From positions 1 through 29,934 of IMG/VR virus record IMGVR_UViG_2802429225_000009: a DNA stretch of 29,934 nucleotides, one strand, 5' to 3'. This DNA is from a virus. Lineage: Duplodnaviria > Heunggongvirae > Uroviricota > Caudoviricetes. The notes below the pieces were generated by a model, which was not told where the DNA came from, did not search any database, and saw nothing but the letters and a program-made list of their open reading frames with translations. The first letter of the stretch is position 1. Every line of letters begins with the position of its first letter. Shown here piece after piece: positions 2,430 through 29,934 of this stretch. A program made the position numbers and the translations under genes.

Positions 2430-2440
2430 AGGGCGTTGCG

Positions 2441-3302: not shown

Positions 3303-3325
3303 GGTTACCGGACAAAGGGGGCGCA

Positions 3326-3529: not shown

Positions 3530-3744
3530 GCAGAAGGCGAATCACACGCAGGCATCGCCGCACACACATGAATTCCTTACCGACGCTGAAAGAACTCATT
3601 CAGCACGAGATCGCTGATTTCTGCGCAACGCTGGGGTCGCCAGGCGAACCGGAAACGCCAGAAGCGATGCAGCGCGAACTCATGATGCGCATCGATAACG
3701 TTTTTGACTTTTTCCTGAATAACAAAAGAGAGCAATCAACATGA
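3526..3744 (+). CDS. Hypothetical protein with a strongly basic N-terminus
   Basis: 72 aa (MSRRRITRRHRRTH...). ATGA overlaps at both ends (3526 and 3741). True start could be the internal Met (MNSLPTLKEL...). Confidence 0.4.
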   Translation: MSRRRITRRHRRTHMNSLPTLKELIQHEIADFCATLGSPGEPETPEAMQRELMMRIDNVFDFFLNNKREQST

Positions 3745-3944
3745 ACAAAAAGACCTGGTTTCGCGCATACATGTGGGCGCTGGTATGCGTCCTCGTCTCT
3801 CTCATTCTGTATGCAGGACTACTCCCCCGAATGATTTCATCAGACAGCTCCTTCCTGGTATTGCTGGGCATTTTCATTGCCATGCTGTACCCGGCAGGCG
3901 TTGTTCGCCTTTTCAGTAAGTACATCAAGGAAATCAAACAATGA
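3741..3944 (+). CDS. Small integral membrane protein (two predicted TM helices)
   Basis: 67 aa with two hydrophobic stretches (WALVCVLVSLILYAGLL; FLVLLGIFIAMLYPAGVV). Coupled by ATGA overlaps to both neighbours. Sits immediately upstream of the SPFH gene, the position an NfeD-type partner usually occupies. Confidence 0.55.
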   Translation: MNKKTWFRAYMWALVCVLVSLILYAGLLPRMISSDSSFLVLLGIFIAMLYPAGVVRLFSKYIKEIKQ

Positions 3945-4771
3945 AGAAATTCAAACCCTTTCAGATTCTCCCGCTTTTTGCCGCCATCCTGCTGGTTGGC
4001 TGCGATCGCGTTGAGCCAGGTAATGTGGGCATCAAAGTCAACAAGCTGGGCGACGACAAAGGCGTTGGCGAAGTGGTTGGCGTTGGCCGCTACTGGACTG
4101 GCTGGAATACCGAGGTTTACATCTTCCCGACCTTCAAACAAATGAAGACCTACGATGAGCCGTTCAGCTTCCAGATGAGTGACGGCACAACCATCGGCTA
4201 TCACATCGGTGTGGCCTACAAGGTTGATCCATCCAAAGTTACCACTGTGTTTCAGACCTACCGCAAAGGCGTGGATGACATTACCGACACCGACCTGCGC
4301 CAGAAGATCGCCGACGCACTCAACCGACTGGCCAGCAAAATGACCACCGATAAATTTATCGACGGTGGCAAGTCTGAACTGCTGGATTCAGCACTTAAAG
4401 ACATTCAGGCAGAAATGACACCTATCGGCATTCAGGTAATGAGCCTCTCTTATGTGGGTAAGCCGGAATACCCGCCAACCGTTATCGACAGCATTAATGC
4501 CAAAGTCACGGCAAACCAGAAAACTCTGCAACGCGAGCAGGAAGTTAAGCAACGCGAAGCAGAAGCCAACATGCTGCGCGCAGAAGCTGCCGGACAGGCT
4601 GATGCCATTCGAACAAAAGCCCAGGCTGAAGCCGACGCCATTCGTTTACGCGGTGAAGCTCTGCGCCAGAATCCCGGCGTTATGGAGCTGGAAGCGATTA
4701 ACAAATGGAACGGCACGCTACCGCAATACATGACCAGTAACACCGCTGTTCCGTTTGTTCCGGTGAAGTAA
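3941..4771 (+). CDS. SPFH/Band-7 (HflK/HflC-stomatin-like) lipoprotein
   Basis: 276 aa. N-terminal signal peptide with lipobox (AAILLVGC). Band-7 core followed by a C-terminal A/E/Q-rich coiled coil (QREQEVKQREAEANMLRAEAAGQADAIRTKAQAEADAIRLRGEA) typical of HflK/HflC-type proteins. Confidence 0.75.
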   Translation: MKKFKPFQILPLFAAILLVGCDRVEPGNVGIKVNKLGDDKGVGEVVGVGRYWTGWNTEVYIFPTFKQMKTYDEPFSFQMSDGTTIGYHIGVAYKVDPSKVTTVFQTYRKGVDDITDTDLRQKIADALNRLASKMTTDKFIDGGKSELLDSALKDIQAEMTPIGIQVMSLSYVGKPEYPPTVIDSINAKVTANQKTLQREQEVKQREAEANMLRAEAAGQADAIRTKAQAEADAIRLRGEALRQNPGVMELEAINKWNGTLPQYMTSNTAVPFVPVK

Positions 4772-4838
4772 TTCAACCCGGCCAGTGAAACCGCTGGCCG
4801 AAAATATAACGAATAAACAAAAAGCCAGAGGACAGAAC

Positions 4839-4985
4839 ATGCACAAAGCCTTTGAACGATGGATGCGCCAGCGTTACGGCAATCGCTATGACCTGACAAG
4901 GGATGTTGATGGCTACTACTGCCGCGAAATTGTGAAACGAATGTTTGAAGTGTGGTGTCACGCTCGCGGCCTGTACGCCGTGTAA
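4839..4985 (+). CDS. Hypothetical small protein
   Basis: Start re-set to ATG 4839 (MHKAFERWMRQRYGNRYDL...) with AGAGGA 7 nt upstream. The track start at 4785 is GTG inside a hairpin. 48 aa. Confidence 0.35.
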   Translation: MHKAFERWMRQRYGNRYDLTRDVDGYYCREIVKRMFEVWCHARGLYAV

Positions 4986-5019
4986 TCCGTGTCACTGTCA
5001 GAAGCTTAACCCATGTATA

Positions 5020-5146
5020 CACAAAAAAACCGCTTGCCATGCCGCAATCAGTCAGGTTACATTTCCGCTGCACCTCATAAAACGGGTGCCGGGTTTCGCA
5101 GCCTGCTGACAACCAAAGCGCACAACCGCGCCAGCGGTTTTTTTGT
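5020..5146. repeat. Perfect 15-bp inverted repeat pair flanking about 97 bp
   Basis: CACAAAAAAACCGCT at 5020-5034 and its exact reverse complement AGCGGTTTTTTTGTG at 5132-5146. The interior holds further short hairpins. No convincing ORF. Confidence 0.6.
5124..5143 (+). terminator. Candidate intrinsic terminator for the upstream early/moron operon
   Basis: ACCGC-GCCA-GCGGT hairpin (5-bp GC-rich stem, 4-nt loop) followed directly by TTTTTTT at 5137-5143. Stem is short, so confidence is modest. It coincides with the right arm of the 15-bp inverted repeat. Confidence 0.35.
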
Positions 5147-5323
5147 GCGTACTGTATTGCCACGTCTTTTTCGCACACGAATTATGGCGGGGCGTACGGG
5201 GCCGACTTCGGTCGGGCCGGGTTCTTTGGTTGCCGGTACTGCGAACCCCGTACGTCTCGCCACCCACAGTTTCGCAGCTCTGGATGGTGAGTTTTCAAAA
5301 CTTACAACCAAAGAGGCCACTCC

Positions 5324-5554
5324 ATGGCAAACCGCAAACAGCTCCGCGCTATCGCGGAGCGTCGTCACATCCAGACTGAAATCAACCGCAGACTTTCCCG
5401 CGCATTCCGCGTCGCTAAAATCATGCACATCAATATGCTGCATGAGCGTAGCTGCGAACTTTCAAACCTCTACTCATCCGCTGTTTTCAGTTATCTGGCG
5501 GATGATCTGCGCGAGCTTCAGCAGCTCATCCAGCAGCAAAACAAACTCCATTAA
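5324..5554 (+). CDS. Hypothetical protein
   Basis: 76-aa ORF with AAAGAGG 7 nt upstream. Predicted helical and basic. Lies upstream of A. Confidence 0.5.
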   Translation: MANRKQLRAIAERRHIQTEINRRLSRAFRVAKIMHINMLHERSCELSNLYSSAVFSYLADDLRELQQLIQQQNKLH

Positions 5555-5626
5555 TTCCTGTTCCGGGCCTTTCCTGCACCTTGCGGCGGGAGGCCTTCGC
5601 ACATCTGTAACAAGAGGATTGCCGCA

Positions 5627-5992
5627 ATGATTCTCGCCAACGACTTTCTTGAATACCTGCTCAACACAGAGCGTGATCTTGCCGTTCGCGTACGTGAACG
5701 TTATGACATGTACCTGAAATCCCTGCCTGTACCGCAGCTCGCTGACGGAAAGATTGTTATTGATGGTCGCTACATGATTGACAGCCACGAGGGAAATTAC
5801 AGGCTTTACCGCATTGAAGGTGGCACCCCGTCCGTTATTGGCATTTACCAGCGCCCATCCTCTGCAATCGTCGATGTGATTGCCGACAGCATCCGCATCA
5901 CACATCGCCATGCCGACACAGAAGACACCGTGCTGGAAATTCAGCGGCTGGCTGCCGTCTGCCGCGACACCCTGAATGGCATGACGAAGTAA
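5627..5992 (+). CDS. Hypothetical protein immediately upstream of A
   Basis: 121-aa ORF with AGAGGA RBS, tightly packed against the A start. Confidence 0.5.
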   Translation: MILANDFLEYLLNTERDLAVRVRERYDMYLKSLPVPQLADGKIVIDGRYMIDSHEGNYRLYRIEGGTPSVIGIYQRPSSAIVDVIADSIRITHRHADTEDTVLEIQRLAAVCRDTLNGMTK

Positions 5993-5998
5993 ATCACT

Positions 5999-8821
5999 AT
6001 GACGACAGAGTTCATCAGGGACTGGCAACAACCGCGCCACGCAGTAGGGCGTGAAGGAACGGGGATCCCCGCACCTGAATCCGCGCTTTCCTCCTGGCTG
6101 GATGCCTACCGGGCAGAGAACGAGCGCCGCCAGGAAATGGCTGATGCGGCGTTCTCCGCCACGCCGCTGGGCAACCTGATTAATAAAAGCCTGGACGCAC
6201 AGGAAAAACAGGACAAAACCATCACACTGGCAGGAGACGCCAGAAAACAGGCACGCGGCGCGGTGGATGAAGCCATGGCCTCGCTCCGCCTGCTGCCGTC
6301 CTATCTGCGCGATCCGCTTATTCGCCACCTCTCCTTCCTGCGCAAAAAACAGGAAGCTGATCGCCGGAAAGGCAAAAAGAGCTGGCAGGCTGAACGCTAC
6401 GCGCGCGGAACCCTGCGCAAAATATTCGAACGTCTGGATCGCACCGACCACCGCTGGCTGACACCGGGTTATCGCTCCCTTGCCGGACGCGAACACCTGG
6501 ATGATTTGCTTTACCTGCCGCAGCTCAACAAACACCAGATACAGACGCTGGCCGCCATGACGGCGGCGATGTTCAGCAGCACCTTCGAAAAACTCTGCGA
6601 TGGCTTTGGCGCGACCGATGGCGAGCTGACCATGGATGTAACCCTGAAGGCGTATCAGATGCTGGCCCGCATGGCGTTACACCTGCACGCCATGCCTCCA
6701 CATTATGACGCACTGACAACAGACAAAGACCGGAGGAACGAACCGGACACGGAGCTGCTGCCGGGCGCAATCCTTCGCCTGACCTGTGCAGAATGGTGGA
6801 AACGCAAACTGTGGCTGTTACGTTGCGAGTGGCGGGAAGAACAACTCCGCGCCGCCTGTCTGGTTTCCAGAAAAACATCTCCCTATCTGAGCCAGGACGC
6901 GTTAAGCGAGTTTCGCGCACAGCGCGAGAAAACACGCGATTTCCTGAAAAGTTTCATGCTGGAAAACGAAGACGGGTTCACGATTGATCTCGAGACAGTG
7001 TATTACGCGGGAGTAAGTAACCCGGTTCACCGTAAGGCAGAAATGATGGCCACCATGAAGGGGCTGGAGCTTCTGGCCGAAGCCCGTGGCGACAAAGCGG
7101 TGTTTCTGACTGTCACCTGCCCGTCAAAATACCACGCCACAACAGAGAACGGTCATCCGAATCCCAAATGGAACGGGGCCACCATGCGCGACTCCAGCGA
7201 TTACCTGGTTAACACGTTTTTTGCGGCGGTCCGCAAGAAACTGAACCGCGACGGCCTGCGCTGGTATGGCATCCGCACGGTGGAGCCTCACCATGACGGC
7301 ACCGTGCACTGGCATATGATGGTCTTTGCTCATCCGGAAGAAATCGACACCATTGTGTCCCACACCCGCGATATTGCCATTCAGGAAGATCGTCACGAGC
7401 TGGGTGATGATATTACCCCACGCTTTAAGGCGGAGCACGTCGACGGCTCAAAAGGCACACCGACCAGCTACATCGCCACCTACATCGGGAAAAACCTGGA
7501 CAGCCGTGCCGTGGATGGCATCGACCCGAAAACGGGCAAGCCACGCGTTGACCACGAAACAGGTAAATCAATGGCCGAGAGCGTGGAGCGCGCCATCGGC
7601 TGGGCGCGCCTTCACCGGGTCCGCCAGTTCCAGTTCTTTGGCATTCCCTCCCGTCAGGTGTGGCGTGAACTCCGCCGCCTTGCCAGCCAGATGGCACGCA
7701 ACCCGGAAGGCCCGCAACGGCTGAAGGATGACGCAATGGATGCGGTTCTTGCTGCCGCTGATGCCGGGTGTTTTGCCACCTACATTGAAAAACAGGGCGG
7801 CGTACTTGTTCCACGCAAAGACTACCTGATTCGCACCGCCTACGACCTCGCCGATGAGCTGAACGATTACGGCGAACAGAGTGTACAGATTTACGGGATC
7901 TGGTCGCCACTCATCGGGGAATCCTCCCGTGTGTGCACGCATCAGGATAACTGGAAGCTGGTAAGACGCAAACCGGAAGCGAAAGACAGCGCCCGCGAAA
8001 ATGGTTTTGACCTTCAGGGCGGCCCTGCCGCCCCTTGGACTCGTGGCAATAACTGTCCCCGTGTACAGGAAACGGACAACAACGGGACAGAACAGCCGGA
8101 AGAACGGCCAGCACCGTGGCCGCAGCTTCCTGACGGCGTTGAAGTAAATGAATGGATGCGCTCACTGAAACGGCACGAACGCCGGGCGCTGATGCGTTCG
8201 CTTCGTGACAAACAGGCAAAAAACAGCAGCGATGAAATGCAGAACTGGACACAGAGCCGCAAACAGCCACAGCCTTTGCCTGATAACCACGAGTTACTCG
8301 CTAAAGAATGGCGGGAGTCTGCTGAATCTCTCGGCCTGCATATCGGTGAACAGCAGATGCAGCACCTGTTACGGGGCGGCAGCCTGTACGTTGACGGCAG
8401 CATCATTGCACCGCAGGGATTTGAAATTGTACGCAAACCGGATACCCGCCCGGACAGCCGAATCACGCAGCTCTGGCAGCGCCTGAGCCGCAATCACGGC
8501 GTAAGCAGCACGGAGATCCGTCATAACCCGGTCGCCAGCTATCTGGAACAGCTGGGGGCATCAGACCCCGAAGCCGCCGCACGCCTGGCATCCACACTTC
8601 AGCAAGACCAGAACACCATGAAAACACCCGTTACCGTGCTTTCTGACATGCTGCGCGCCATCCGTGACGCAGAGCACGCACAGAGAATCAGTGAAACCAC
8701 TGAACGCGCCCGCCGCAAAGCAAACCTGCTGCGGGGTGGCCTGACCAGTGGAAACAAAAAACAGACAAAAACGGGATTTACAAATCCCGTAAATGAGCAA
8801 AAAACGCGCCGCGATATATGA
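5999..8821 (+). CDS. A: Rolling-circle replication initiator (HUH endonuclease), P2 gpA family
   Basis: 940-aa ORF. HUH-type motif (HHDGTVHWHMMVFAHPEE) and other blocks remembered from P2/186 A proteins. Position after the early genes matches P2. The C-terminal ~180 aa is longer than I recall for P2 A and overlaps the first palindromic site, so the true stop could be earlier if there is a sequencing frameshift. Confidence 0.85.
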   Translation: MTTEFIRDWQQPRHAVGREGTGIPAPESALSSWLDAYRAENERRQEMADAAFSATPLGNLINKSLDAQEKQDKTITLAGDARKQARGAVDEAMASLRLLPSYLRDPLIRHLSFLRKKQEADRRKGKKSWQAERYARGTLRKIFERLDRTDHRWLTPGYRSLAGREHLDDLLYLPQLNKHQIQTLAAMTAAMFSSTFEKLCDGFGATDGELTMDVTLKAYQMLARMALHLHAMPPHYDALTTDKDRRNEPDTELLPGAILRLTCAEWWKRKLWLLRCEWREEQLRAACLVSRKTSPYLSQDALSEFRAQREKTRDFLKSFMLENEDGFTIDLETVYYAGVSNPVHRKAEMMATMKGLELLAEARGDKAVFLTVTCPSKYHATTENGHPNPKWNGATMRDSSDYLVNTFFAAVRKKLNRDGLRWYGIRTVEPHHDGTVHWHMMVFAHPEEIDTIVSHTRDIAIQEDRHELGDDITPRFKAEHVDGSKGTPTSYIATYIGKNLDSRAVDGIDPKTGKPRVDHETGKSMAESVERAIGWARLHRVRQFQFFGIPSRQVWRELRRLASQMARNPEGPQRLKDDAMDAVLAAADAGCFATYIEKQGGVLVPRKDYLIRTAYDLADELNDYGEQSVQIYGIWSPLIGESSRVCTHQDNWKLVRRKPEAKDSARENGFDLQGGPAAPWTRGNNCPRVQETDNNGTEQPEERPAPWPQLPDGVEVNEWMRSLKRHERRALMRSLRDKQAKNSSDEMQNWTQSRKQPQPLPDNHELLAKEWRESAESLGLHIGEQQMQHLLRGGSLYVDGSIIAPQGFEIVRKPDTRPDSRITQLWQRLSRNHGVSSTEIRHNPVASYLEQLGASDPEAAARLASTLQQDQNTMKTPVTVLSDMLRAIRDAEHAQRISETTERARRKANLLRGGLTSGNKKQTKTGFTNPVNEQKTRRDI

Positions 8822-8868
8822 AGCGCGCACAAAACAGGCGAAAGCGGGATTTCAGAATCCCGTAAACG
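8771..8868. promoter_or_regulatory. Twin palindromic sites upstream of parM (candidate parC-like centromere/operator)
   Basis: CGGGATTT-ACA-AATCCCG at 8772-8789 (perfect 8-bp arms) and GGGATTTCAGAATCCC at 8846-8861 (7-bp arms). Both are followed by GTAAA, lie about 75 bp apart, and the second is 37 bp upstream of the parM start. Candidate -10 TAATTA at 8871-8876. Confidence 0.4.
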
Positions 8869-8897
8869 GTTAATTAACCAACATAAGGAAAATCGAC

Positions 8898-9857
8898 ATG
8901 AAAATTTGTATCGACGACGGCTCCACCAACATCAAGCTGGCATGGACTGAGAACGGCGAACGCCGCAACGCCATCAGCCCGAACAGCTTCAAGTCGGAAT
9001 GGTCTGCGCCGTTCGGTGGCACGCAGCCCGCAAACTACATGCTTGATGGCGTGCGCTATGGTTTTGATCCGGTCAGCGATCGCTTTGTCCAGACGACCGA
9101 CACGCAATACCAGTACAGCGATGTGAATGTCATTGCCATTCATCACGCGCTGGTCAAATCAGGTATCACACCACAGGAAGTGGATGTGGTTGTCACCCTG
9201 CCACTGAGCGAGTATTTCGACACAAACGCCCAGCCGGATATGACCAACATCAACCGCAAAAAAGCGAACGTTATGCGCCCGGTGGAGTATCAGAACAGTG
9301 AGGCATTCACTATCCGCAACGTACGGGTTATGCCTGAATCCATTCCGGCTGGCTTTAAGGCACTGGCTGACATGAGTCAGTTTGAATCCCTGCTGATTGT
9401 GGATTTGGGCGGAACCACGCTGGATGTGGCAAAGGTTCAGGGACAACTGGCAGGTATCAGCCAGGTGTTTTGCGATCCACACGTAGGCGTTTCTCTGATG
9501 GCCGATGCCGTGCTGTCGGTGATGGCCACCAACGGTATGCGTACCAGTCACCACATCGCTAATACCATTATCGAACATCGCCACGATGAAGCCTGGCTGC
9601 GCCAGCACATCCACAATAACGCACATTACGCCAGCCTGATGGCAGTTATTCGTGAAAAGGAGGAAACACTGAAACAACGCGTGATCCGCGCGCTGGCGGG
9701 TTTTTCGGGTTACGGGCGGGTGATGGTTGTAGGTGGAGGAGCGGAGATTGTGGCACCCGCTATCCGCGAAGCCTGCGGAGTTAATGCGACTTTCATCGCG
9801 GACGGGGTGCCACAGTTTGCTCTGGTTAATGGGCTGTACGCAATGGACAAGGAGTAA
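8898..9857 (+). CDS. parM: ParM/StbA actin-like segregation ATPase
   Basis: 319 aa. N-terminus MKICIDDGSTNIKLAW...ISPNSFKSEW...QYSDVNVIAIHHALVKSGI tracks remembered R1 ParM (MLVFIDDGSTNIKLQW...ISPNSFKREW...QYSDVNVVAVHHALLTSGL). Actin-fold phosphate motifs (DDGST; DLGGTTLD). AAGGA RBS. Confidence 0.85.
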   Translation: MKICIDDGSTNIKLAWTENGERRNAISPNSFKSEWSAPFGGTQPANYMLDGVRYGFDPVSDRFVQTTDTQYQYSDVNVIAIHHALVKSGITPQEVDVVVTLPLSEYFDTNAQPDMTNINRKKANVMRPVEYQNSEAFTIRNVRVMPESIPAGFKALADMSQFESLLIVDLGGTTLDVAKVQGQLAGISQVFCDPHVGVSLMADAVLSVMATNGMRTSHHIANTIIEHRHDEAWLRQHIHNNAHYASLMAVIREKEETLKQRVIRALAGFSGYGRVMVVGGGAEIVAPAIREACGVNATFIADGVPQFALVNGLYAMDKE

Positions 9858-9860
9858 ATC

Positions 9861-10176
9861 AATGACGACACCAACCAGACGGATAAGTTTCTATCTGAAG
9901 CCCGCCGTCGTCAAGAGCGAACGGGAGGCGTGCAGTTACCTCGACAGCCTGCCAGCCTCCGAACGCAGCCGCGCACAACGCGCGGCTTTTCTGGCTGGAC
10001 TGGCTCTTATAAAACGCACCCCCGCGTTGGCGTATTCGCTGGCAGAATGGTCAGAAGACGAAATACGGATGCCACCGCTACCAGTACAGCCTGAAAAACC
10101 TGCGCAACCAGCAGCAGACAGCGCCTCCCATATGCAGCAGGTGAAAAAGAATATTCAGGCGTTTTTCCCGAAGTGA
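9861..10176 (+). CDS. parR: ParR/StbB ribbon-helix-helix centromere-binding adaptor
   Basis: Start re-set to ATG 9861 (MTTPTRRISFYLKPAVV...YLDSLPASERSRAQRAAFLAGLALI), which resembles remembered R1 ParR (…RRTIAFKLNPDV…TLDSIPQGERSRLNRAALTAGLALY). AAGGAG RBS. Directly downstream of parM. Confidence 0.8.
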
Positions 10177-21065: not shown

Positions 21066-21115
21066 GCTTAATAAGCCTTCCTGCAGGCTTATTAAGCCCT
21101 CTTATTCTTGACTTT
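21066..21115 (+). terminator. Hairpin with T-rich tail inside the late operon (candidate attenuator)
   Basis: Perfect 12-bp stem GCTTAATAAGCC (21066-21077) / GGCTTATTAAGC (21086-21097) with an 8-nt loop, followed by CCTCTTATTCTTGACTTT. The T-tract is interrupted, so termination is probably partial. Confidence 0.4.
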
Positions 21116-21123
21116 AAAAGGAA

Positions 21124-21417
21124 ATGATGATGAACGATAAAAACACACAGACTACCGCAGAGAACACCATCACTTTACAGGTCGGCGAGCATGAACTGAC
21201 GTTTATCCCGACCGTAAAAGCCTACAACGACCTGCAGAACGACTTCATGCCGGATAACAAAATCGCGCCGCTGAAAAACTACCTGCGCCGTATCGTGATT
21301 AAAGAGCACCGCGATCTGCTGAACCAGTTGCTGGAAAAACCAGGAATGCCGGCCAGCCTGGCAACAGCCGTGAATAACGAGTTTGTGCCGGAAGTGGAAA
21401 TCACCGTAAAAAAATAA
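21124..21417 (+). CDS. Tail assembly chaperone (gpE/gpG-like), zero-frame product
   Basis: 97-aa acidic protein immediately upstream of the tape-measure gene. Ends in a poly-A slippery heptamer. Confidence 0.6.
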   Translation: MMMNDKNTQTTAENTITLQVGEHELTFIPTVKAYNDLQNDFMPDNKIAPLKNYLRRIVIKEHRDLLNQLLEKPGMPASLATAVNNEFVPEVEITVKK

Positions 21418-21605
21418 AAAGCCATCTGGGGGCCATTGATCGCAATGACCTGACCCGGATGCTGATTCTGCGCCGCCACTGGCTGCCCGGCGAGGATGAC
21501 TCGCCGCAGTCACTGGCTGCCGCCGTCTGGCTGGATAACCACTACTGGGAAAATATGAGCATCGCCGTCAATAACGGCATTATCCGTGCTTTTAAGGGAT
21601 CGTAA
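21124..21605 (+). CDS. Tail assembly chaperone, predicted -1 frameshift fusion product
   Basis: Slippery heptamer A_AAA_AAA at 21408-21414, just before the zero-frame stop (21415-21417). The -1 frame is open from there to a stop at 21603-21605 that overlaps the tape-measure ATG (extension ...IKSHLGAIDRNDLTRMLILRRHWLPGEDD...AFKGS). Confidence 0.45.
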
Positions 21606-23701
21606 TGTCACAACAGCGCCTTGAATTACTTCTTGAACTGACAGATCGCCTGACAAGGCCGTTGCGTGCAGCCGGGCGACAGGTTCAGGGATTTGCTGCA
21701 ACAAGTCGGGGAGCCTTTCGGGACATTGCTACCGGAGGCGCTGCGCTCTGGGGAGTGGGTGCAGCCATTCAGGGGGCACTGATGCCAGCCATTGAAATGG
21801 ACAGGGCGCTCGGTGAGGTGAAATCACTGGGCGTCGCAGAGTCCGGATTGCGTAAACTCAGCCGCGCCGCCGTTGATTTCACTATGGAATACGGCGGGGC
21901 TGCGCAGGATTTTGTGCGTGCTTCTTACGACATCCAGTCAGCCATTGCCGGGTTAACTGACGATGAGCTGTCCCGCTTCACCACCGCATCAGCAACGGTG
22001 GCAGCAGCAACCAAATCCAGCAGCCAGACCATTACCGCCTACATGGGCACCATGTACGGCATCTTTAAAGACCAGGCTGATGCCATGGGAAAAAGTAAAT
22101 GGGTGGAGCAGGTCGCCGGGCAAACCGCCACCGCCGTGCAAATGTTTAAAACAACCGGCGATAACATGTCAGCGGCGTTCACCACGCTGGGGGCTAGTGC
22201 AAAAGCGGCCGGTATTGATGCGGCTGAACAGTTCGCCGTGCTGGGACAACTACAGGCCACCATGAGTGGCAGCGAGGCCGGGACAAAATACAAGGCATTT
22301 CTTGCCGCAGTAGGTAGCGCCCAGAAAAAGCTGGGGCTTAATTTCGTGAATAAAGACGGCACCATGAAAAGTGTTGTCGAGATCATGAAACTTATCAGGG
22401 GTAAATTTGGTGATCTGTCAAAAGTGGCTGATTCCGATTTGCTAAAAAGCGCCTTTGGCTCCGATGAAGCTGTGGCCATGATTAAATTACTCAATGCGGA
22501 CATTGGCGGACTTGAAAAGAATATCGCCACGCTGGGCAATATCAAAGGTATGGATAAGGCTGTCGAAATGGCGCAGGCCATGGCTGATCCATGGGAACAG
22601 GCCGCTGCAATTATTAACGGCATTCGCATCGAAATTGGCACGCAGTTGTTGCCTGTTCTGTACCCGTTTATCCAGAAAAGCAACGAAGGCGGTAAATCCT
22701 TTGTTGCCTGGTTACGCCTGTATCCAAACATCACTCGCGCAATCGGCTTATTAAGCGCGGCACTTATTGGTGTTGCGGCGGTTGGCGCAACGGTCAATGT
22801 CGTAATGGGGGTTGCGAAATTTATCTGGGTGGGATTACGCATGGTCTGGATGGCCGTCATCGCCCCACTGAAATTAATCGTTTTTCTGTATCGCACAATG
22901 AGAGTGGTTATGCTTGCGTTCTGTGCTGCCGCCCGCATGGTAAGAGCAATATATCTGGCAATAAACATCGCCATGGGAGTGATGAATATTCGCGCCAGAG
23001 CACAACTGCTATTGATGGGCCTACAACGTGCCGGAATGCTCCTGCAGGCAGCAGCATTATCAGCCGTTTCTGTTGCCATGGGGATTTATTCCGCAGTCAC
23101 CAGCGGAGCCGCAATTGCAACACAGTTACTTTTCAGCCCCATCACATTAATCATCCTGGCACTGGCTGCGCTGGGTGTGGGCATTTATTTCCTGATTACC
23201 CGCTGGGATGAAATCAAAGCTGCACTGATGGATACCGCTGCATTTCAGTGGGTTGCCGGCATCATTAACAGCATGGGGGCGTGGTTCGGCAATGCATGGA
23301 GTGCAATCAGGGATGGCTGGAATGCACTGGTTAACTATTTTTCCACCCATTCACCACTGGATGCCCTGAAGGATCTCGCGGGCGGCATACTGAATATTTT
23401 CAGCAACCTCTGGGAACTGGTGAAACAGTCCTTCAGTGATTCATGGGGCTGGATTGTGGACAAACTCAACATGATCCCCGGCGTTAACATCGGCACATCA
23501 GAAAGCACAGGAAGTGGCGAAGGCTCCGTATTAACCGGCGGCAAAGCCATCAGTGCGGGACCGGGCGGCATTGCGGCAGAGATGCAGAACAACAGCGAAA
23601 ACCAGACCACCATCGACAACTCCCGTCGTGTGGTCAACGTCAATGTGCAGGATCCATCCCCTGCCCGTCTTAACGAGTGGATGGAGCTGCATGCATACTG
23701 A
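21605..23701 (+). CDS. Tail tape measure protein
   Basis: 698 aa. Alpha-helical, Ala/Gly-rich, with a central run of hydrophobic segments. Follows the chaperone frameshift site. Confidence 0.85.
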   Translation: MSQQRLELLLELTDRLTRPLRAAGRQVQGFAATSRGAFRDIATGGAALWGVGAAIQGALMPAIEMDRALGEVKSLGVAESGLRKLSRAAVDFTMEYGGAAQDFVRASYDIQSAIAGLTDDELSRFTTASATVAAATKSSSQTITAYMGTMYGIFKDQADAMGKSKWVEQVAGQTATAVQMFKTTGDNMSAAFTTLGASAKAAGIDAAEQFAVLGQLQATMSGSEAGTKYKAFLAAVGSAQKKLGLNFVNKDGTMKSVVEIMKLIRGKFGDLSKVADSDLLKSAFGSDEAVAMIKLLNADIGGLEKNIATLGNIKGMDKAVEMAQAMADPWEQAAAIINGIRIEIGTQLLPVLYPFIQKSNEGGKSFVAWLRLYPNITRAIGLLSAALIGVAAVGATVNVVMGVAKFIWVGLRMVWMAVIAPLKLIVFLYRTMRVVMLAFCAAARMVRAIYLAINIAMGVMNIRARAQLLLMGLQRAGMLLQAAALSAVSVAMGIYSAVTSGAAIATQLLFSPITLIILALAALGVGIYFLITRWDEIKAALMDTAAFQWVAGIINSMGAWFGNAWSAIRDGWNALVNYFSTHSPLDALKDLAGGILNIFSNLWELVKQSFSDSWGWIVDKLNMIPGVNIGTSESTGSGEGSVLTGGKAISAGPGGIAAEMQNNSENQTTIDNSRRVVNVNVQDPSPARLNEWMELHAY

Positions 23702-24041
23702 TAAACCGCTTTACATTGATTTGCTCATCACCGGCCGCAATCTCACGCTGAACAGCGCCAGTGAGCCGGTGTTATGCAACAACAGGGAAAGTATTGCCCA
23801 GGACTGCCAGCACGCCATCATTGAGAGCGGACTGGCAACGCGCCTGCTGGCTGAAAAAAGCCCGACGCTTCGTGCCGACATCATGATGCAGATGACACTG
23901 CTGATTGAAGATGATGAGCGCATCACACCTGGCACGGTCAGTGTGACAGAAGAAACCCTGCTTTCTGGTCGCCTGCTGATTAGCGCCCACACCGAAGATT
24001 TTTTTGAACCCCTGACTTTTACGGTATCTCTTGATGATTAA
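23691..24041 (+). CDS. Putative small baseplate protein (gpW/gp25-like by position)
   Basis: 116 aa starting at ATG 23691, overlapping the tape-measure stop. Directly upstream of the J-like gene, as W precedes J in P2. No sequence-level confirmation. Confidence 0.4.
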   Translation: MHTDKPLYIDLLITGRNLTLNSASEPVLCNNRESIAQDCQHAIIESGLATRLLAEKSPTLRADIMMQMTLLIEDDERITPGTVSVTEETLLSGRLLISAHTEDFFEPLTFTVSLDD

Positions 24042-25218
24042 CGGCAAACCTACCGCAGATTACGAGCGCATTCTGGCTGATAATGGCATGCCGGTAACCG
24101 AAGAACAGGCACGTGCTGAATTTGAAGCCATTGTCAAAGACGAAGGGCTTATCACCAACACATCCCGCATGTCGCCGTTCTGGCGACTGATTACAGCTAT
24201 CACCACAAAACCCGTAATGTGGCTGAAAGATGCGCTGGTTAATGTGGTGATGAAAAACCTGTTTCTGGCTGATGCCAGCGGTGTATTCGTTGATGTTTTT
24301 GCCTGGGCGGTAAACCTGCAACGCAAGGCCGCCACGCACGCAGCCGGCGTGATTCGTTTCACCAAAAACGACATTGATCACGCAGTTACCGTGCCGGCCG
24401 GTACGCAGATTCAGACAGAACGCATTAACGGCGTGATTTATACGCTGACCGTTGTCAGGGATACCGTTATTCCGGCAGGAACACTCAGCATGAACATCGA
24501 TGTTTCTGCGGAACAGGCCGGAGCCGGCTTTAACCTTGCGCCGGGATATTACCGCATCCTTCCGGTGGCGATTGATGGTATTGCCGGTGTTGAGAACGAT
24601 GAAAACTGGCTGACCACACCGGGTGCCAACGAAGAAAGCGATGACGAGCTGCGTGATCGTGTTCGCAATCAGTTTAATCTTGCCGGCGCTTATCACACAG
24701 ATGCTGTTTACCGGGGATTAATTGCCGGCGTTGCCGGCATCAGTGCCGACCGCATCTATTTTCTGCATGACGCACCACGCGGCCCCGGCACAGCAAATGC
24801 TTACATTCTGCTGGATACTGGCATCGCATCCGAACCGTTCGTTGATGCAGTAAACGCATTCATTAACGATGAAGGTCATCACGGACACGGTGATGATCTG
24901 CGCTGTTTTTCCATGCCTGAAACACGCCACACCCTGACCGTGACACTCTGGTTATATGCAACACTGAACCTCAGCGATGAGGAAATTCAGACGTTATTGC
25001 GCAATGTGGAAAATCTGGTTCGCTGTGCATTTCGAGAAAACAGCGATTATGACGTTCAGAAAACATGGCCGTATAGCCGTTTCAGCATGTCCAGACTGGG
25101 CGAAGAGATCCACCAGGTATTTCCACAGGTGGAGTCGGTTACATTTTCTCTTCCGGATATTCTCAGTGATCTGGCTGTTCCTCGTCTGGAATCCCTTACT
25201 GTGGAGGTGAGCGCGTGA
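24034..25218 (+). CDS. Baseplate J-like protein
   Basis: Start re-set to ATG 24034 (the track begins on TTG at 24031). 394 aa, upstream of an I-like gene and the fibre gene, matching the J-I-H order. Confidence 0.7.
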   Translation: MINGKPTADYERILADNGMPVTEEQARAEFEAIVKDEGLITNTSRMSPFWRLITAITTKPVMWLKDALVNVVMKNLFLADASGVFVDVFAWAVNLQRKAATHAAGVIRFTKNDIDHAVTVPAGTQIQTERINGVIYTLTVVRDTVIPAGTLSMNIDVSAEQAGAGFNLAPGYYRILPVAIDGIAGVENDENWLTTPGANEESDDELRDRVRNQFNLAGAYHTDAVYRGLIAGVAGISADRIYFLHDAPRGPGTANAYILLDTGIASEPFVDAVNAFINDEGHHGHGDDLRCFSMPETRHTLTVTLWLYATLNLSDEEIQTLLRNVENLVRCAFRENSDYDVQKTWPYSRFSMSRLGEEIHQVFPQVESVTFSLPDILSDLAVPRLESLTVEVSA

Positions 25219-25850
25219 AACTTCCGGAGATCCCTGAACTCCCGCTCCCCACCTGGATGAATAAAGGCGAGCCGTTAACGCTGGCACATTCATCGCATCG
25301 CTACTGGGAAAAGGTATACAGCTGGCTGACGTGGCCACTACAGCAGATTGATGTCGACACCTGCGCAGAGCCTTTACTTAACCTGCTGGCTTATCAGCGC
25401 AATATCACCCGATTTAAAGGTGAGCCGGTTTCGTTATTTCGCTTAAGAGTGAAACACGCGTTTATTAACGCTCAGGACTCGGGCGAACGCGCCGGCTTCG
25501 AACGCATCTTTAAGCGTCTTGGCGTGGGAGACGTTAAAACACTGGAACGGCAACTGCAGCATGACTGGGACGTTATTTTACTGCGCATTAATGACACCCA
25601 GTTAAGTGAAAACAACGCGCTGATGATGCAGCTCGTGCGCCAGTATGGTCGTACCTGCAGGCGCTATTTCTTTCAGGTAATCAATACAACCACTGCCCGG
25701 CTGACAGCCGGCACATTTGATGGCCATTACAGGTATCACACAGCAGAAGCAACGGTGAGAAAGGACACCATCTGGTTAACCGCTTCGCTACAGGCAGGAC
25801 ATTACGGCCTGTCCGTGGAGCATTACACATTACAGGCAGACGAAGCATGA
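25215..25850 (+). CDS. Baseplate/tail protein I-like
   Basis: 211 aa. Apparent GTG start at 25215 with GGAGG 7 nt upstream, overlapping the J stop (GTGA). Alternative ATG at 25257. Confidence 0.65.
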   Translation: MKLPEIPELPLPTWMNKGEPLTLAHSSHRYWEKVYSWLTWPLQQIDVDTCAEPLLNLLAYQRNITRFKGEPVSLFRLRVKHAFINAQDSGERAGFERIFKRLGVGDVKTLERQLQHDWDVILLRINDTQLSENNALMMQLVRQYGRTCRRYFFQVINTTTARLTAGTFDGHYRYHTAEATVRKDTIWLTASLQAGHYGLSVEHYTLQADEA

Positions 25851-27547
25851 GCACGATTATTACTGAACAGTACGAACACTGGTGTGCGAATCAGCTCATC
25901 AGTGGAAAACCTGCGCGCCCGGATACATTTGTTTTTGCATATATTCCGGGACAGGATGAATCCGCAGAGATCCCCCGCGATGAGATACTCCCTGATGAAT
26001 CCATGATTCAGTATCGTGCGCCGGTCACCCAGTACGGCCTCCTGTCGCCGAACGCGACCGCGTTTTCCATCATTCTGGACACGACAGTCGGCGACTTCGA
26101 ATACAACTGGATCGGCCTGCTGAACGAAGAAAGCGGCGTGCTCTGCATGATTGCACACACACCTCGTCAGCAAAAAATTAAAACAGCGAACGGCGTACAG
26201 GGAAACAACCTGATCCGCACATTTTCCATGGAGTTTGACGGCGCAGCCGCAGCAATGCATATCGATGTCAGTGCTGATGTCTGGCAGATTGATTTCACTG
26301 CACGCCTTGCAGGAATGGATGAGGCCCGCCGGCTGCTGGCGTTTGATCACTACGGTGAAGCCGCTTTTCTGGGGGATGGTTTTCAGGTCAGCTATCAGGA
26401 TGGTACCGCTACTGTTGCCGCCGGCGTGGGTTATGTGGGAGGTCTGCGCGTCAGTCTGCGCGAACCTTACAGCCTGCCGGCTGCGGTCGGGGATACCATT
26501 TGGATTGATGCAAGCTGGCAGGGATTTGTTACCGGCGAATGGAATACCGTTTTTACGTTCTGCGCCCGCCAGGAACATGCGTCCTATACAGACGGTAACG
26601 GCTTCCGACACTTTGTCGCGCCACTTGCGAAACTGACATCAGAAGGCTTACAGGATTTACGTCCACAGACGCCCGATGAAGAACAAAGCAATGCACTGGC
26701 AGAGCACGAAAAATCCCGCCGTCATCCGGACGCAACACTGAAGGAGAAAGGCTTTGCGCAGTACAGCAACTCCACCGACAGCGACGCAGAAGACCGCGCC
26801 GCCACATCAAAGGCAGTAAAAGCCGCAATGGATAAGGCAAAAGGCGCTGTTGAGCGTGACGGCGACACCATGACCGGGGAACTGAAAATCCGTGGTGTTA
26901 ATGCGCTGAGGATTTTCAACGAAGCCTTTGGTCTGATTTTTCGTCGTTCGGAAGAGTGCCTGCACCTTATCCCTACCAGTGAAGGTCAGGGCGAGAATGG
27001 CGATATTGGTCCACTTCGACCGTTCACTATTAATCTGCGGACGGGTGAAATATCCATGTCGCATAAAGTGTCTGTTGGCGGCGGTTCTCAGGTCAATGGT
27101 GCGCTGGGTATCGGCGTTCAGAACGCACTGGGCGGAAACTCAATTGCTTTCGGGGATAACGATACCGGCCTGAAACAGAATGGTGATGGCCTGCTGGATG
27201 TTTATGCCAATAGCGTGCATGTGTTGCGTTTTCAGAGTGGCAGTATCCAGAGTAATAAAGCTGTAAACGTTACAGGACGGGTAACACCGTCAGACTACGG
27301 AAACTTTGATGCCCGTTACCAGACCAAAACAGGCGGCGTGCAGGATGTGCGTTATGGTTCCGAAATGTATTACAACCCGGGAGGTAACCAGATATCCTGG
27401 ACATTTCGCTCACCTTCAGGCCACGGGTTATCCGGTATTAATGTGCAGGAAACCGGAAGTAATTCGGCAGATAACATCGGCGGCGTGTATTACCGACCGC
27501 TTCAGAAACTGATTAACGGTACCTGGTATAACGTGGCGAGTGTTTAA
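25847..27547 (+). CDS. H: Tail fibre protein, P2 gpH-like N-terminal region
   Basis: 566 aa. The segment EHEKSRRHPDATLKEKGFAQYSNSTDSDAEDRAATSKAVKAAMDKA matches the remembered conserved gpH block (EHEQSRRHPDASLTAKGFTQLSSATNSTSETLAATPKAVKAAYD). Distal part is Gly/Asn/Ser-rich. Confidence 0.85.
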   Translation: MSTIITEQYEHWCANQLISGKPARPDTFVFAYIPGQDESAEIPRDEILPDESMIQYRAPVTQYGLLSPNATAFSIILDTTVGDFEYNWIGLLNEESGVLCMIAHTPRQQKIKTANGVQGNNLIRTFSMEFDGAAAAMHIDVSADVWQIDFTARLAGMDEARRLLAFDHYGEAAFLGDGFQVSYQDGTATVAAGVGYVGGLRVSLREPYSLPAAVGDTIWIDASWQGFVTGEWNTVFTFCARQEHASYTDGNGFRHFVAPLAKLTSEGLQDLRPQTPDEEQSNALAEHEKSRRHPDATLKEKGFAQYSNSTDSDAEDRAATSKAVKAAMDKAKGAVERDGDTMTGELKIRGVNALRIFNEAFGLIFRRSEECLHLIPTSEGQGENGDIGPLRPFTINLRTGEISMSHKVSVGGGSQVNGALGIGVQNALGGNSIAFGDNDTGLKQNGDGLLDVYANSVHVLRFQSGSIQSNKAVNVTGRVTPSDYGNFDARYQTKTGGVQDVRYGSEMYYNPGGNQISWTFRSPSGHGLSGINVQETGSNSADNIGGVYYRPLQKLINGTWYNVASV

Positions 27548-27549
27548 CA

Positions 27550-28101
27550 ATGTTGCATTTAAAAAATATTACTGCGGGTAATCCGAAAACCGCGGAACAA
27601 TATCAGCTGACAAAACAATATGGTGTCACCTGGCTTTTTTCGGAAGACGGCAAAAACTGGTATGAAGAACAGAAGAACTTTGCCAGTGACACCATAAAAA
27701 TGGTTTACACCGGAGACGGGCGCGTGGTGTGGGTCGGTAAGGATGTGACAGGCATTGAACCCCGTAACGCCAGTGTTATTGAAGTTCCGGATATTACCGC
27801 TAATCGCCGTATTACCGCGCCTGGTTACTGGTTTTACCGCGATGGCAATTTTATCTTCGACTACAAACTTAAAGCGGAAGATGAGCGTGATGCACTGTTA
27901 AAACAGGCCAGTATCATGACCAGCGAATGGGAAAAAGACCTGCTGCTGGGATTAATCAGCGACGAAGACAGGGAAAAACTGAAAGCCTGCCGTATTTATA
28001 CAAAAACGTTACGGGAGATGACATTCAGCCAGGTTACAGATAAAGCATCGTATGCCGCGATTGTATGGCCAGAATTACCGCAGAACATTAGCGAGAATTA
28101 A
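27550..28101 (+). CDS. Tail fibre assembly protein (gpG/Tfa-like)
   Basis: 183 aa, immediately after the fibre gene. N-terminal conserved start and C-terminal VWPELP-type motif typical of P2 G / lambda Tfa family. Confidence 0.75.
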   Translation: MLHLKNITAGNPKTAEQYQLTKQYGVTWLFSEDGKNWYEEQKNFASDTIKMVYTGDGRVVWVGKDVTGIEPRNASVIEVPDITANRRITAPGYWFYRDGNFIFDYKLKAEDERDALLKQASIMTSEWEKDLLLGLISDEDREKLKACRIYTKTLREMTFSQVTDKASYAAIVWPELPQNISEN

Positions 28102-28107
28102 GAAGTA

Positions 28108-29934
28108 ATGAGCGCATTGTTGACGAAAGCATTTGAAAAGTGGGTTGCTGAATGCACAGCCAGTAATTTACCTGCACGCCCTGATGCTATTATTTTTGCC
28201 CTGATGGAGCGGGAACCAACGCGCGAAGATAATACCGTTCCGGAAGAAAAAATCACATATGCTGTGAATGAACTGACTTACGGCCAGTTAAGCCCGAACA
28301 ATATTGTGTGTAGCGCGGTTGTTCCTGATGACTGTGCATTCAGTTATGACTGGATTTGCCTTATCCATCAGGCCAGCGGAACACTATGCGGCGTAATAAA
28401 GACGCCTGTTCAACAAAAAGTAACAGGCGAATCACTTATTCGTAATTTCACAATTATATACAGCGGCATTGCTCAGGCTGCGCAAATTACCGTTCCTCCA
28501 CAGAGCTGGCAGGTAGATCTTTTCCCTGAAATAAACAAAAAAGCGCCACTGGACAGCCCGGCGTTCACCGGCACACCAACCACACCAACTCCGCCAGACG
28601 ATGCGGTCGGGCTGGAGATGGCGAACGCAGCGTTTGTTCGCAAACTGCTCGCCGCACTGGTTGACTCATCACCGGAAGCCCTGGACACACTGAACGAACT
28701 GGCAGCGGCGCTGGGCAATGACCCGAACTTTTCGACGACGGTCATTAGCGCGCTGGCGGGTAAACAACCGCTGAACGATTTGCTGACGGCAATCAGTGAA
28801 CTGACGAAACGGGCAGATAATCTTCTGTACTTTAATCAGGACGGGAATGTTTCTCTCTCTCCGCTGTCAGAAAAAGCCCGCGCATTACTGGCACTGGACA
28901 CACCTGAAGCCATGCGCACGGAACTTGAACTGAAAGCGGCTGCAACGATGGAGTCCCAGAGCAATATCCGCGACCGCACACCAGGCAGGCTGGCGCTGCC
29001 GGGGGCATTTGGATACGGAATGACAGAGCACGAGGGGATGGTGCTCGGCATTACAAATCTTGATGAGCTTGCGTTGATATGCATGAACACAGAACCAGGT
29101 CGATATTACACATCATCAATGTCATCAGGTGATTTAACTGGTGTAGTCGAATTTATCTGGCTGGACAACTGGCAGAATGACAAAACCAGCCAGACAGCAA
29201 CAAAACTTATTCTGTTTTACGGAAGAGACGGACGTATTCTTTCCAGCGTTCGCGGCTCTGACTACGGAGCCCCTGTTGTATGGAGAGATCTTACCCCATT
29301 AACTGGCAACACAACTGTAAAAGACGCGCAATCGGATATCCGGGATCGTACACCTGGCAGGCTGGCGCTGTCCGGCATGTATGGATTCGGCCAAGCATTT
29401 ACCAGCACCGAAGCCCTGACATTTAACGGACAGGCCGATTTTGCTGAATGGCTGAAAGAGGCCACCCCGGGGCGTTATGCGGTCAGTATTGCGGACTCTT
29501 CCACACTACTGGCGGGCACCACGAAATTTAACGGCATCATTGATGTGATGTGGTCACCCTTTGATAACGACGAGTCGGACACAACGCGCAAATTCAAAAC
29601 GCTGCTGTGTTTTAACCAGTATTACGAAGGTGAGCACAGTATTCATCGCCTGACTTACCGCTGGAGTGGAAACAACTGGAATGCAACAGTAAGCCCCATT
29701 ATTTACGACGGCGATTCGCTGGCGTTCCTGCTGTCCAGGACAGCTGGCTCAGGCTCATATTTCAAATACCCGGCAGTGGGTGTTCCGGTGCTGGCTGTTT
29801 ATCGCGGAACAACTTCCGGGGATAAAGAAATCAAAATTGGCCTGGGTGATGTGGTGCAGGGGTCACAACTGGGCGGAGTTAATCTTTCGTGCACAATATC
29901 TTCTGCGGGGGCTGGCTCCTACGGTTCCACACCG
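28108..29934 (+). CDS. Second tail fibre protein (side-tail-fibre / Stf-like), 3' partial
   Basis: Open frame from ATG 28108 to the window end (609 codons, no stop), absent from the ORF track because it has no in-window stop. N-terminus (MSALLTKAFEKWVAECTASNLPARPD...) parallels the first fibre. The segment SPEALDTLNELAAALGNDPNFSTTVISALAGKQPLNDLLTAISEL matches the conserved block of lambda Stf / Mu S / P1 S-type fibres as I remember them. Confidence 0.7.
   Translation, partial: MSALLTKAFEKWVAECTASNLPARPDAIIFALMEREPTREDNTVPEEKITYAVNELTYGQLSPNNIVCSAVVPDDCAFSYDWICLIHQASGTLCGVIKTPVQQKVTGESLIRNFTIIYSGIAQAAQITVPPQSWQVDLFPEINKKAPLDSPAFTGTPTTPTPPDDAVGLEMANAAFVRKLLAALVDSSPEALDTLNELAAALGNDPNFSTTVISALAGKQPLNDLLTAISELTKRADNLLYFNQDGNVSLSPLSEKARALLALDTPEAMRTELELKAAATMESQSNIRDRTPGRLALPGAFGYGMTEHEGMVLGITNLDELALICMNTEPGRYYTSSMSSGDLTGVVEFIWLDNWQNDKTSQTATKLILFYGRDGRILSSVRGSDYGAPVVWRDLTPLTGNTTVKDAQSDIRDRTPGRLALSGMYGFGQAFTSTEALTFNGQADFAEWLKEATPGRYAVSIADSSTLLAGTTKFNGIIDVMWSPFDNDESDTTRKFKTLLCFNQYYEGEHSIHRLTYRWSGNNWNATVSPIIYDGDSLAFLLSRTAGSGSYFKYPAVGVPVLAVYRGTTSGDKEIKIGLGDVVQGSQLGGVNLSCTISSAGAGSYGSTP
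28964..29384 (+). repeat. Intragenic direct repeat in the second fibre gene
   Basis: About 50 bp at 28964-29015 and 29338-29389 share roughly 80% identity, including a perfect 15-mer GGCAGGCTGGCGCTG (28984-28998 and 29358-29372). They encode a repeated SxIRDRTPGRLAL(P/S)G..G(Y/F)G motif 374 bp apart. Confidence 0.6.

Follow-up and report, generated by a model that had tools for sequence, protein, structure and literature searches.

Two consecutive tail-fibre and chaperone cassettes in a probable HP1/P2-type Escherichia prophage, with motif-led knob-like modules in the second fibre

The viral stretch IMGVR_UViG_2802429225_000009 (29,934 nucleotides (nt); here called the window) ends in a run of tail genes: a gpI-like baseplate gene, a tail fibre gene (fibre 1), its assembly gene and a second fibre gene (fibre 2) that is cut by the window end, all on the + strand (open reading frame (ORF) list and three-frame translation; Table 1). 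The window end probably falls inside the receptor-binding region of an HP1/P2-type (Peduoviridae-like) Escherichia prophage with two fibre-chaperone cassettes. An E. coli contig (GCA_014519945.1; L006), 100% identical to window positions 21108-29934 over 8827 nt, completes the locus. In this contig the fibre 2 ORF closes 111 nt past the window end to give a protein of 645 amino acids (aa), and a DUF4376 gene (PF14301; 193 aa; L006:8952-9533) begins 13 nt after its stop. A first-pass annotation, made from the letters of the window, had placed the 3' end of the fibre 2 gene, and any second assembly gene, beyond the window, and it is there that both are found. The window translation of fibre 2 is identical to a partial protein of Escherichia sp. 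MOD1-EC5950 (P0001) and to full-length 645-aa proteins (P0002); it is conserved at 97-100% in 27 clusters and at 90% or more in others (E. coli, E. marmotae, E. ruysiae and Salmonella).

The gene order in L006 is J, I, fibre 1, Caudo_TAP (the assembly gene), fibre 2, DUF4376, a 237-aa protein, HP1_ORF34 and a 565-aa spike-like protein, and the same order is present in E. coli A36 (96.9% nt identity) and 7_33_46A. The match to the HP1_ORF34 family (PF25759, E 1e-53) marks this as an HP1-type tail module (Peduoviridae, Hpunavirus/Irrigatiovirus-like). Apart from the extra fibre-chaperone pair, the tail order, tape-measure protein (TMP)-DUF2590-J-I-fibre-chaperone-orf33-like-ORF34-spike, is that of HP1 and SI7, whose gpI counterparts, SI7 gp19 and HP1 orf30, share 52% and 48% identity with the gpI-like protein. 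The junctions are tight, with a 4-nt overlap between the gpI-like and fibre 1 genes and then gaps of 2 nt (fibre 1 to assembly gene), 6 nt (to the fibre 2 ATG) and 13 nt (to the DUF4376 gene), and both cassettes would be co-expressed late from one operon. A scan of the fibre region of L006 returned no sigma-70-like promoter and only weak terminator-like matches between the cassettes; such a scan says nothing on Ogr-type late promoters.

Table 1. Features at the right-hand end of the window (window coordinates)
Feature	Position	Strand	Evidence or remark
Baseplate J-like gene, tail-module context	24031..25218	+	PF04865 E 1.1e-31; same position as HP1 orf29, SI7 gp18
gpI-like baseplate gene	25215..25850	+	PF09684 E 7e-5 (Tail_P2_I); stop overlaps fibre 1 start (ATGA)
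Fibre 1, putative resident HP1-type tail fibre with Mu S-like distal part	25847..27547	+	566 aa; PF12571, PF03406
Horizontally shared segment: fibre 1 distal part and nearly all of assembly gene	26870..28070	+	blastn
Tail fibre assembly gene of fibre 1	27550..28101	+	183 aa; PF02413 Caudo_TAP E 1.4e-22; phrog_136 E 1.7e-59
Fibre 2, first 609 of 645 codons, runs off window	28108..29934	+	open frame
Fibre 2 N-terminal anchor (aa 1-~143), paralogous to fibre 1 start	28108..28538	+	PF12571
Shaft block (aa 144-280), APLDSPAFTGTPT...ALDTLNELAAALGNDPNF...ELELKAAATME	28539..28959	+	Stf-type block identity
Knob-like module 1 (aa 285-408)	28960..29331	+	module hidden Markov model (HMM) E 3.5e-42 (sequence itself in HMM seed)
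Direct repeat copy 1, motif NIRDRTPGRLALPGAFGYG	28964-29018	+	55 nt
Knob-like module 2 (aa 409-536)	29332..29715	+	94-97% identical to Stf module 3
Direct repeat copy 2, motif DIRDRTPGRLALSGMYGFG	29336-29390	+	left edge of shared module 2-head-chaperone cassette
Distal head of fibre 2 (aa 537-609 of 645, cut at window end)	29716..29934	+	98-99% aa identical to Stf-type C-terminus

Both fibres start with the same domain family. PF12571 matches aa 3-157 of fibre 1 at 102.5 bits (E 2.8e-29) and aa 3-137 of fibre 2 at 46.3 bits (E 5.7e-12), against a gathering cut-off of 23 bits, and the profile confirms that the second ORF belongs to a fibre family. The N-termini are 37% identical over 153 aa (BLASTP, E 3e-25), and BLASTP finds no alignment between the two proteins outside the first ~150 residues. 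The first-pass annotation was right, then, to describe two consecutive fibre genes with related N-termini and different distal parts, separated by an assembly gene (PF02413, the family of lambda Tfa, Mu U and P2 G, at 80.7 bits against a cut-off of 22.1). A recent duplication of the N-termini is not supported by their 37% identity or by the extent of homology to known fibres: the ~340 N-terminal aa of fibre 1 are collinear with HP1 orf31 and SI7 gp20 at 37-44% identity, while fibre 2 shares only its first ~138 aa with them, at 27-32%. Because only fibre 1 is collinear in this way with the single HP1/SI7 fibre, and because the anchor of fibre 2 belongs to a discrete subfamily described below, we take the resident fibre to be fibre 1 and regard fibre 2, together with its DUF4376 gene, as an added cassette.

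Towards its distal end fibre 1 carries PF03406 (aa 297-335; 51 bits, E 1e-13), followed by a region, aa 342-565, that matches the receptor-binding region of the Mu fibre protein S (5yvq, E 1e-18). The lambda Stf/Mu S block that had been assigned to fibre 2 most plausibly means PF03406, and it sits in the other gene: in full-length fibre 2, PF03406 is not detected even at E <= 1, and PF12571 alone is reported. Over the horizontally shared segment in Table 1 the window matches two loci at 90-94% nt identity, one in phage vB_Apl-pPE4 (L003) and one in a prophage of E. coli W (L004), and homology is absent on either side; a match to phiP27 spans 26817-27998. Fibre 1 would be built from an HP1-type N-terminal region of ~340 aa, the PF03406 repeat and a horizontally acquired Mu S-like tip, served by a Caudo_TAP chaperone.

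The resemblance of the fibre 1 distal part and its chaperone to Mu S and U, in a locus that continues past the window end, raises the question of whether the two fibres could be alternatives under site-specific inversion or another programmed switch (as in the Mu G, P1 C or e14 P segments) controlled by genes situated past the window, where the first-pass annotation had advised looking for a Cin/Gin-type invertase. The completed locus argues otherwise. From the fibres up to the host flank, no recombinase gene is present in L006, A36, 7_33_46A and others, and no serine invertase gene near the fibres in L006, A36 or 7_33_46A up to the chromosomal flank. The sequence AAACCNNGGTTT is the core of Gin/Cin/Hin crossover sites, and it is absent from both the window and L006. 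Long inverted repeats flanking the fibre genes were not found, nor were oppositely oriented alternative fibre-tip or chaperone genes, both fibre and both chaperone genes being on the + strand. We consider a switch of this kind to have next to no probability; for the sequenced relatives the absent recombinase, the absent AAACCNNGGTTT and the single strand refute it.

Beyond its anchor, fibre 2 is closely related to the Stf-type side tail fibres (PF08400 N-terminus, ~1040 aa; E. coli W and vB_Apl-pPE4). Homology of the anchor stops at 28518-28538 in 32 E. coli genomes. The shaft block that follows is 82-85% (block 1) and 76-78% (block 2) aa identical to the blocks of Stf-type fibres, 76-85% overall, and matches the tail collar fibre gp4 (solved structure 9d93, E 9e-12) as well as phrog_7032, 8713, 2631 and 454. 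In Stf-type proteins the APLDSPAFTGTPT...ALDTLNELAAALGNDPNF block starts right after PF03406 (...AVKTVMDETKTKAPLDSPAFTG), so the fibre 2 anchor appears to have replaced everything N-terminal to the block: a 140-aa PF12571 anchor stands where Stf-type fibres have ~270 N-terminal aa (PF08400, a coiled region and PF03406). Module 1 is only ~51% aa identical to the Stf-type module 1. Module 2 and the head, in contrast, are 94-99% identical in aa and 88-89% in nt to Stf-type genes, and the same DUF4376 gene follows; phrog_2636 spans fibre 2 aa 401-645, and the DUF4376 protein of A36 scores 57.3 bits against a cut-off of 25. NCBIfam holds no family for either fibre or either chaperone. The number of units also differs, as three modules and two shaft blocks are present in the Stf of E. 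coli W and in most listed Stf-type proteins, the second fibre of pPE4 has one module and one block, and fibre 2 has two modules and one block. Fibre 2 would therefore be, on its domain layout, a chimera in which a ~140-aa PF12571 anchor is fused, exactly at the position of PF03406 in Stf-type fibres, to a distal region of Stf type, made up of the shaft block, the two knob-like modules (~124 aa each) and the head, with a DUF4376-type chaperone. Duplication followed by divergence of the receptor-binding regions, as first proposed, does not account for these data: the distal regions of the two fibres are unrelated and horizontally acquired, with their 90-94% and 88-89% nt matches elsewhere.

A comparison of C-terminal tails (L006:7001-8938, L008:4501-5793 and L002:9262-11301) revealed that fibre 2 alleles with otherwise unrelated heads end alike, in ...G.(L/I)(C/S)L(F/V)(V/M)R.. 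(GRICLFVRIE, GLVSLFVRAT and WWICLVMRAE). Since all those alleles are followed by a DUF4376 gene, the shared tail may be a chaperone-recognition element.

The distribution of the fibre 2 anchor sets it apart from the general family. An exhaustive HMMER search of 1.84 billion representatives returned 19 at E <= 1e-30 (at least 58% identity), followed by a sharp drop to 43%, the level at which the general PF12571 family sets in. The anchor is thus a discrete subfamily of ~19 clusters at 50% identity. Word-indexed searches with the module profile or the 145-aa anchor gave short fragments, and diversity was taken from the exhaustive search of representatives. Searched by tblastn against 50,697 phage records, the anchor is found in 41 records, in one place each and at no more than 33% identity. 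By megablast, at least 32 of 5426 complete E. coli genomes contain the anchor DNA, and a single one of them, A36, has the exact two-module allele.

This rarity, together with a gene that is cut by the window end, could suggest that fibre 2 is a non-functional leftover, decaying or unexpressed, with the phage using fibre 1 alone, and in some relatives the second fibre is indeed damaged: in E. coli A2 it is split into pseudogene pieces, and in K_EC180 it is truncated at 274 aa. We find this explanation distinctly unlikely for the window. In the 100% identical contig the 645-aa ORF is intact, which leads us to reject the pseudogene reading for this allele, and the conservation across clusters given above speaks for maintenance of the protein, as do an anchor above the Pfam threshold, a chaperone gene of its own directly downstream and a position upstream of, and in the same orientation as, essential baseplate and spike genes. 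Other disrupted loci were seen alongside: in strain 33-6 an IS1 element abuts the fibre 2 start within a prophage remnant, and in RM10740 it is fibre 1 that is split. The decaying fibre loci inspected are L011:4501-6084, L010:4501-5325, L012:3788-6031 and L008:2012-3940.

The direct repeat reported within fibre 2 is real, and it does encode IRDRTPGRLAL twice in frame, at aa 287 and aa 411. Each copy is 55 nt long, and the start-to-start distance is 372 nt (124 codons) and not the 374 first given. The copies match at 43 of 55 nt (78%), with a longest exact run of 15 nt, and codons differ synonymously at four positions within IRDRTPGRLAL and at six over the aligned 22 codons. The two 124-aa units self-align at a score of 121, against 29.9 +/- 4.4 in shuffles; with the motif removed the score is still 47, where 300 shuffles give 28.5 +/- 4.4 and never exceed 43. 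Because the units outscore shuffles even without the motif, the 55-nt repeat is the best-conserved part, the start, of two old, diverged ~124-aa modules and not a fresh DNA duplication; a recent tandem duplication is ruled out by the nucleotide and protein divergence of the copies. The remaining short repeats of the region (D2-D20, I1-I17) are 14-29 nt long and mostly 71-93% identical, and we treated them as chance; these include one exact inverted pair of 14 nt (I7).

Two in-frame direct copies of the same 11 residues, 372 nt apart, in a gene whose alleles vary in module number, might still be read as a recent intragenic duplication serving as an active RecA substrate, through which fibre 2 variants of differing length or specificity would often arise within a population. 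For RecA to recombine efficiently in E. coli, some 23-27 identical bp are required. The longest exact run here is only 15 nt, so frequent RecA-dependent deletion is improbable. The 78% identity of the copies and the synonymous differences within the shared peptide point the same way, and the module bodies are only ~25-29% identical in protein, as expected if the duplication is old or the modules are of separate origin. Moreover, each of the 57 protein clusters nearest to fibre 2 (90-100% identity, from E. coli, E. marmotae, E. ruysiae and Salmonella) has two motifs and no more, at aa 287 and 411, and repeat copy number does not behave as an active source of variation across these relatives. 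We regard an active repeat as very unlikely.

Over evolutionary time the picture is different. Fibre 2 alleles found at this chromosomal position in other E. coli genomes have one module and 430-431 aa, or a module-block-module layout and 679 aa, and 15 representatives with the fibre 2-type anchor have 0, 1 or 2 modules whose order relative to the shaft block varies. The listed Stf-type proteins have two or three motifs detectable by regular expression; the module is absent from all 135 more distant PF12571 proteins. As alleles with the same anchor carry 0, 1 or 2 modules, length variation by gain and loss of modules is real between lineages, and there is no sign of it within the lineage of the window. 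The proposal that the repeat underlies length or specificity variation therefore survives on the evolutionary scale, where breakpoints and module numbers bear it out, and is not supported for an active substrate.

Breakpoints were located by blastn of the window against five related loci. Homology ends at 29002 (L004 block 2 and L005), 29018 (L003) or 29019 (L002), all positions within repeat copy 1 or at its end, and homology with Stf-type loci resumes at 29335, one base ahead of repeat copy 2. The clearest case is L005, in which window positions 28863-29002 (92%) and 29335-29873 (88%) correspond to 3901-4041 and 4001-4539, a single uninterrupted stretch. Compared with this contiguous block-motif-module arrangement the window has an extra 372-nt module 1 body between the two motif copies, and the module 1 body 29003-29334 is absent from L005. 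When the A36 locus was used as the query against E. coli genomes, 126 genomes gave a match. Among the matches listed, those covering fibre 2 start at query position 389-390, which is base one or two of the second motif, and most of these continue through the head and most of the DUF4376 gene. Module 2, head and chaperone are thus shared as one cassette. Homology breakpoints coincide with the motif copies, and the breakpoints would have arisen by homologous recombination in motif-coding DNA.

The same pair of cassettes is present in other phage backgrounds. In vB_Apl-pPE4 (L003:5293-9948) and the E. coli W prophage (L004:1-5307), a Mu S-like tip and Caudo_TAP are followed by an Stf-type fibre and DUF4376, with different N-terminal anchors on both fibres, and it seems that the two-cassette unit travels together while the anchors alone are exchanged. 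An Stx2e-encoding prophage remnant of E. coli O139:H1 P15-25 (L005:1041-4714) has kept only the last Stf-type module, the head and the DUF4376 gene, and this piece is fused next to a truncated terminase gene.

For the fold of the ~124-aa module, an AlphaFold2 model of full-length fibre 2 (42-sequence alignment) gave a mean predicted local distance difference test (pLDDT) of 40.7, at which only the secondary-structure pattern is usable. A model of module 2 alone, from 27 diverse aligned modules, reached pLDDT 74.9, with one helix and six strands and the motif at low confidence. Foldseek against the PDB found nothing at E <= 0.001 for this model (6cl5: probability 0.72, template-modelling (TM) score 0.39), and a ten-module profile against PDB sequences gave chance hits only (E >= 0.1). 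The significant matches in BFVD are to tail fibres of phages Goslar and Av-05 (E ~4e-7, TM 0.64-0.70, 27-28% identity). As modelled, the module most resembles the knob-type domains of phage and R-pyocin receptor-binding proteins (such as 6CL6), with modest scores, and we refer to it, tentatively, as knob-like.

As part of our main explanation, which we consider probable, we propose that the boundary motif D-R-T-x-G-R-L-A-x-x-G-x-x-G-x-G, which opens each knob-like module, acts as a portable junction. Recombination between the fibre genes of different prophages at the motif, at the shaft block and at the anchor end would allow modules to be gained, lost and swapped, and the outermost module would move as a unit with the head and its matching chaperone gene. 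Each fibre would fold as a trimer with the help of its own chaperone and dock on the baseplate via its PF12571 anchor, fibre 1 presenting a Mu S-like tip and fibre 2 the knob-knob-head tip common to Stf-type prophage fibres. We infer that both fibres are mounted on the virion, and with two different tips the phage would have two receptor specificities. A further-reaching version, with both fibres on one baseplate via diverged anchors, dual specificity, and the IRDRTPGRLAL..G..G.G motif as a true recombination hotspot, is a tentative one to which we assign somewhat less than an even chance.

Several points weigh against the main explanation. Co-assembly of the two fibres is deduced only from gene order and intactness. 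The second fibre is broken in A2 and K_EC180 and the first in RM10740, so selection does not always preserve the pair. The knob assignment comes from a monomer model on a shallow alignment of 27 sequences. Breakpoints coinciding with the motif are also expected from selection for correctly folded chimeras, with no preference in recombination, and most of the Stf-type loci that have the 29335 boundary probably derive from one event, which makes them not independent observations.

The geometry of assembly can also be seen differently. HP1-type baseplates of characterised relatives have one fibre gene, and here the same domain family starts both fibres, the second of which lacks residues ~140-340 of the N-terminal region of the resident fibre. 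Fibre 2 could be made and yet take up no fibre position on the baseplate wedge: it would vie with fibre 1 for one set of six sites, so that virions are mixed or of alternative kinds, or it would branch off fibre 1. We judge this somewhat unlikely. It concerns assembly geometry only and is compatible with our main explanation, as the 37% identity of the anchors fits shared or separate docking.

If both fibres are mounted simultaneously, the window would represent a temperate P2/HP1-type myophage with two receptor specificities at once, an arrangement unseen in the 41 sequenced phages with related anchors. If the motif is a hotspot, enterobacterial prophages of different tail types could trade knob modules, heads and DUF4376 chaperones. 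Tail fibres set which bacteria a phage or tailocin attacks, and module exchange is a known way to change host range. A map of the exchange units (anchor, shaft block, motif-led modules, and head with DUF4376) helps to annotate mislabelled prophage fibres and could aid the design of chimeric fibres for host-range engineering.

Set against known systems, the locus is ordinary, well-documented tail-fibre mosaicism, with no new mechanism. Its particular points are the extra fibre-chaperone cassette in an HP1-type module, an Stf-type distal region that bears a PF12571 anchor instead of PF08400, and a ~124-aa enterobacterial knob-like module whose conserved first 20 residues mark exchange junctions. 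HP1 (orf31/orf32) and SI7 (gp20/gp21), which share the tail-module order, have one fibre and one chaperone, to which the lineage of the window adds a second fibre and the DUF4376 chaperone; their distal fibre parts and chaperones give no BLASTP hit to those of the window. With Mu S/U, and also P2 H/G, fibre 1 has in common PF03406, the Mu S-like tip and the Caudo_TAP chaperone; the window locus differs from Mu in lacking an invertible segment, an invertase and S'/U' alternatives, and fibre 2 lacks PF03406. Stf-type loci even have the same upstream neighbour, a Mu S-like fibre tip with Caudo_TAP. A literature search for a described two-fibre HP1/P2-like phage returned nothing relevant.

The T-even gp37/gp38 fibre genes reportedly recombine at motifs, and the fibre genes of P2, Mu, P1, lambda and T4 are said to be mosaic. 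In T-even distal fibre genes, as in fibre 2, short conserved sequences flank variable segments at exchange junctions and the chaperone travels with the tip. The proposed junction motif of fibre 2 differs in sequence from theirs and marks the start of a repeated globular module. A parallel in architecture comes from the fibres of Alteromonas phages A5 (gp8/gp9) and V22 (gp26/gp27), which carry a single knob domain or two of low mutual identity, followed by a distal head, and are served by a DUF4376 chaperone, an arrangement common to unrelated phage families (PMC10579305). DUF4376 proteins have been studied experimentally as tail-fibre chaperones, and knob duplication beside one has been described (PMC10579305, PMC7289586). 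The likeness of fibre 2 to the A5 and V22 fibres (anchor, stem, knobs, head and separate DUF4376) is one of architecture; the hosts here are enterobacteria, and the knob fibre is the second of two.

The prophage as a whole looks like a hybrid of two Peduoviridae lineages, because its early region is P88-like while its tail region has the HP1/SI7 order. Window positions 1820-10059 (early/replication region) are ~94% identical to phage P88 and other Xuanwuvirus genomes, and the late/tail region, with the gene order of HP1/SI7, has no megablast match in the phage collection. G+C content is patchy in step with the fibre segments (0.54, 0.50, 0.45, 0.45, 0.57, 0.49 and 0.53). It drops to 0.45 over 27550-28538, where the assembly gene and the anchor of fibre 2 lie, from 0.50-0.57 in the adjoining segments, and this fits a separate origin of that stretch. 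Past the window, at the prophage end, L006:13313-14654 holds accessory genes for a Hok/Gef toxin, a Com zinc-ribbon protein and an N6 DNA methyltransferase, and host genes come after the last two. Finally, Stf-type fibre proteins or fragments are named 'shikimate transporter' in many NCBI records (P0061, P0063, P0076, P0121 and others, and L011:5014-6084), a propagated misannotation.

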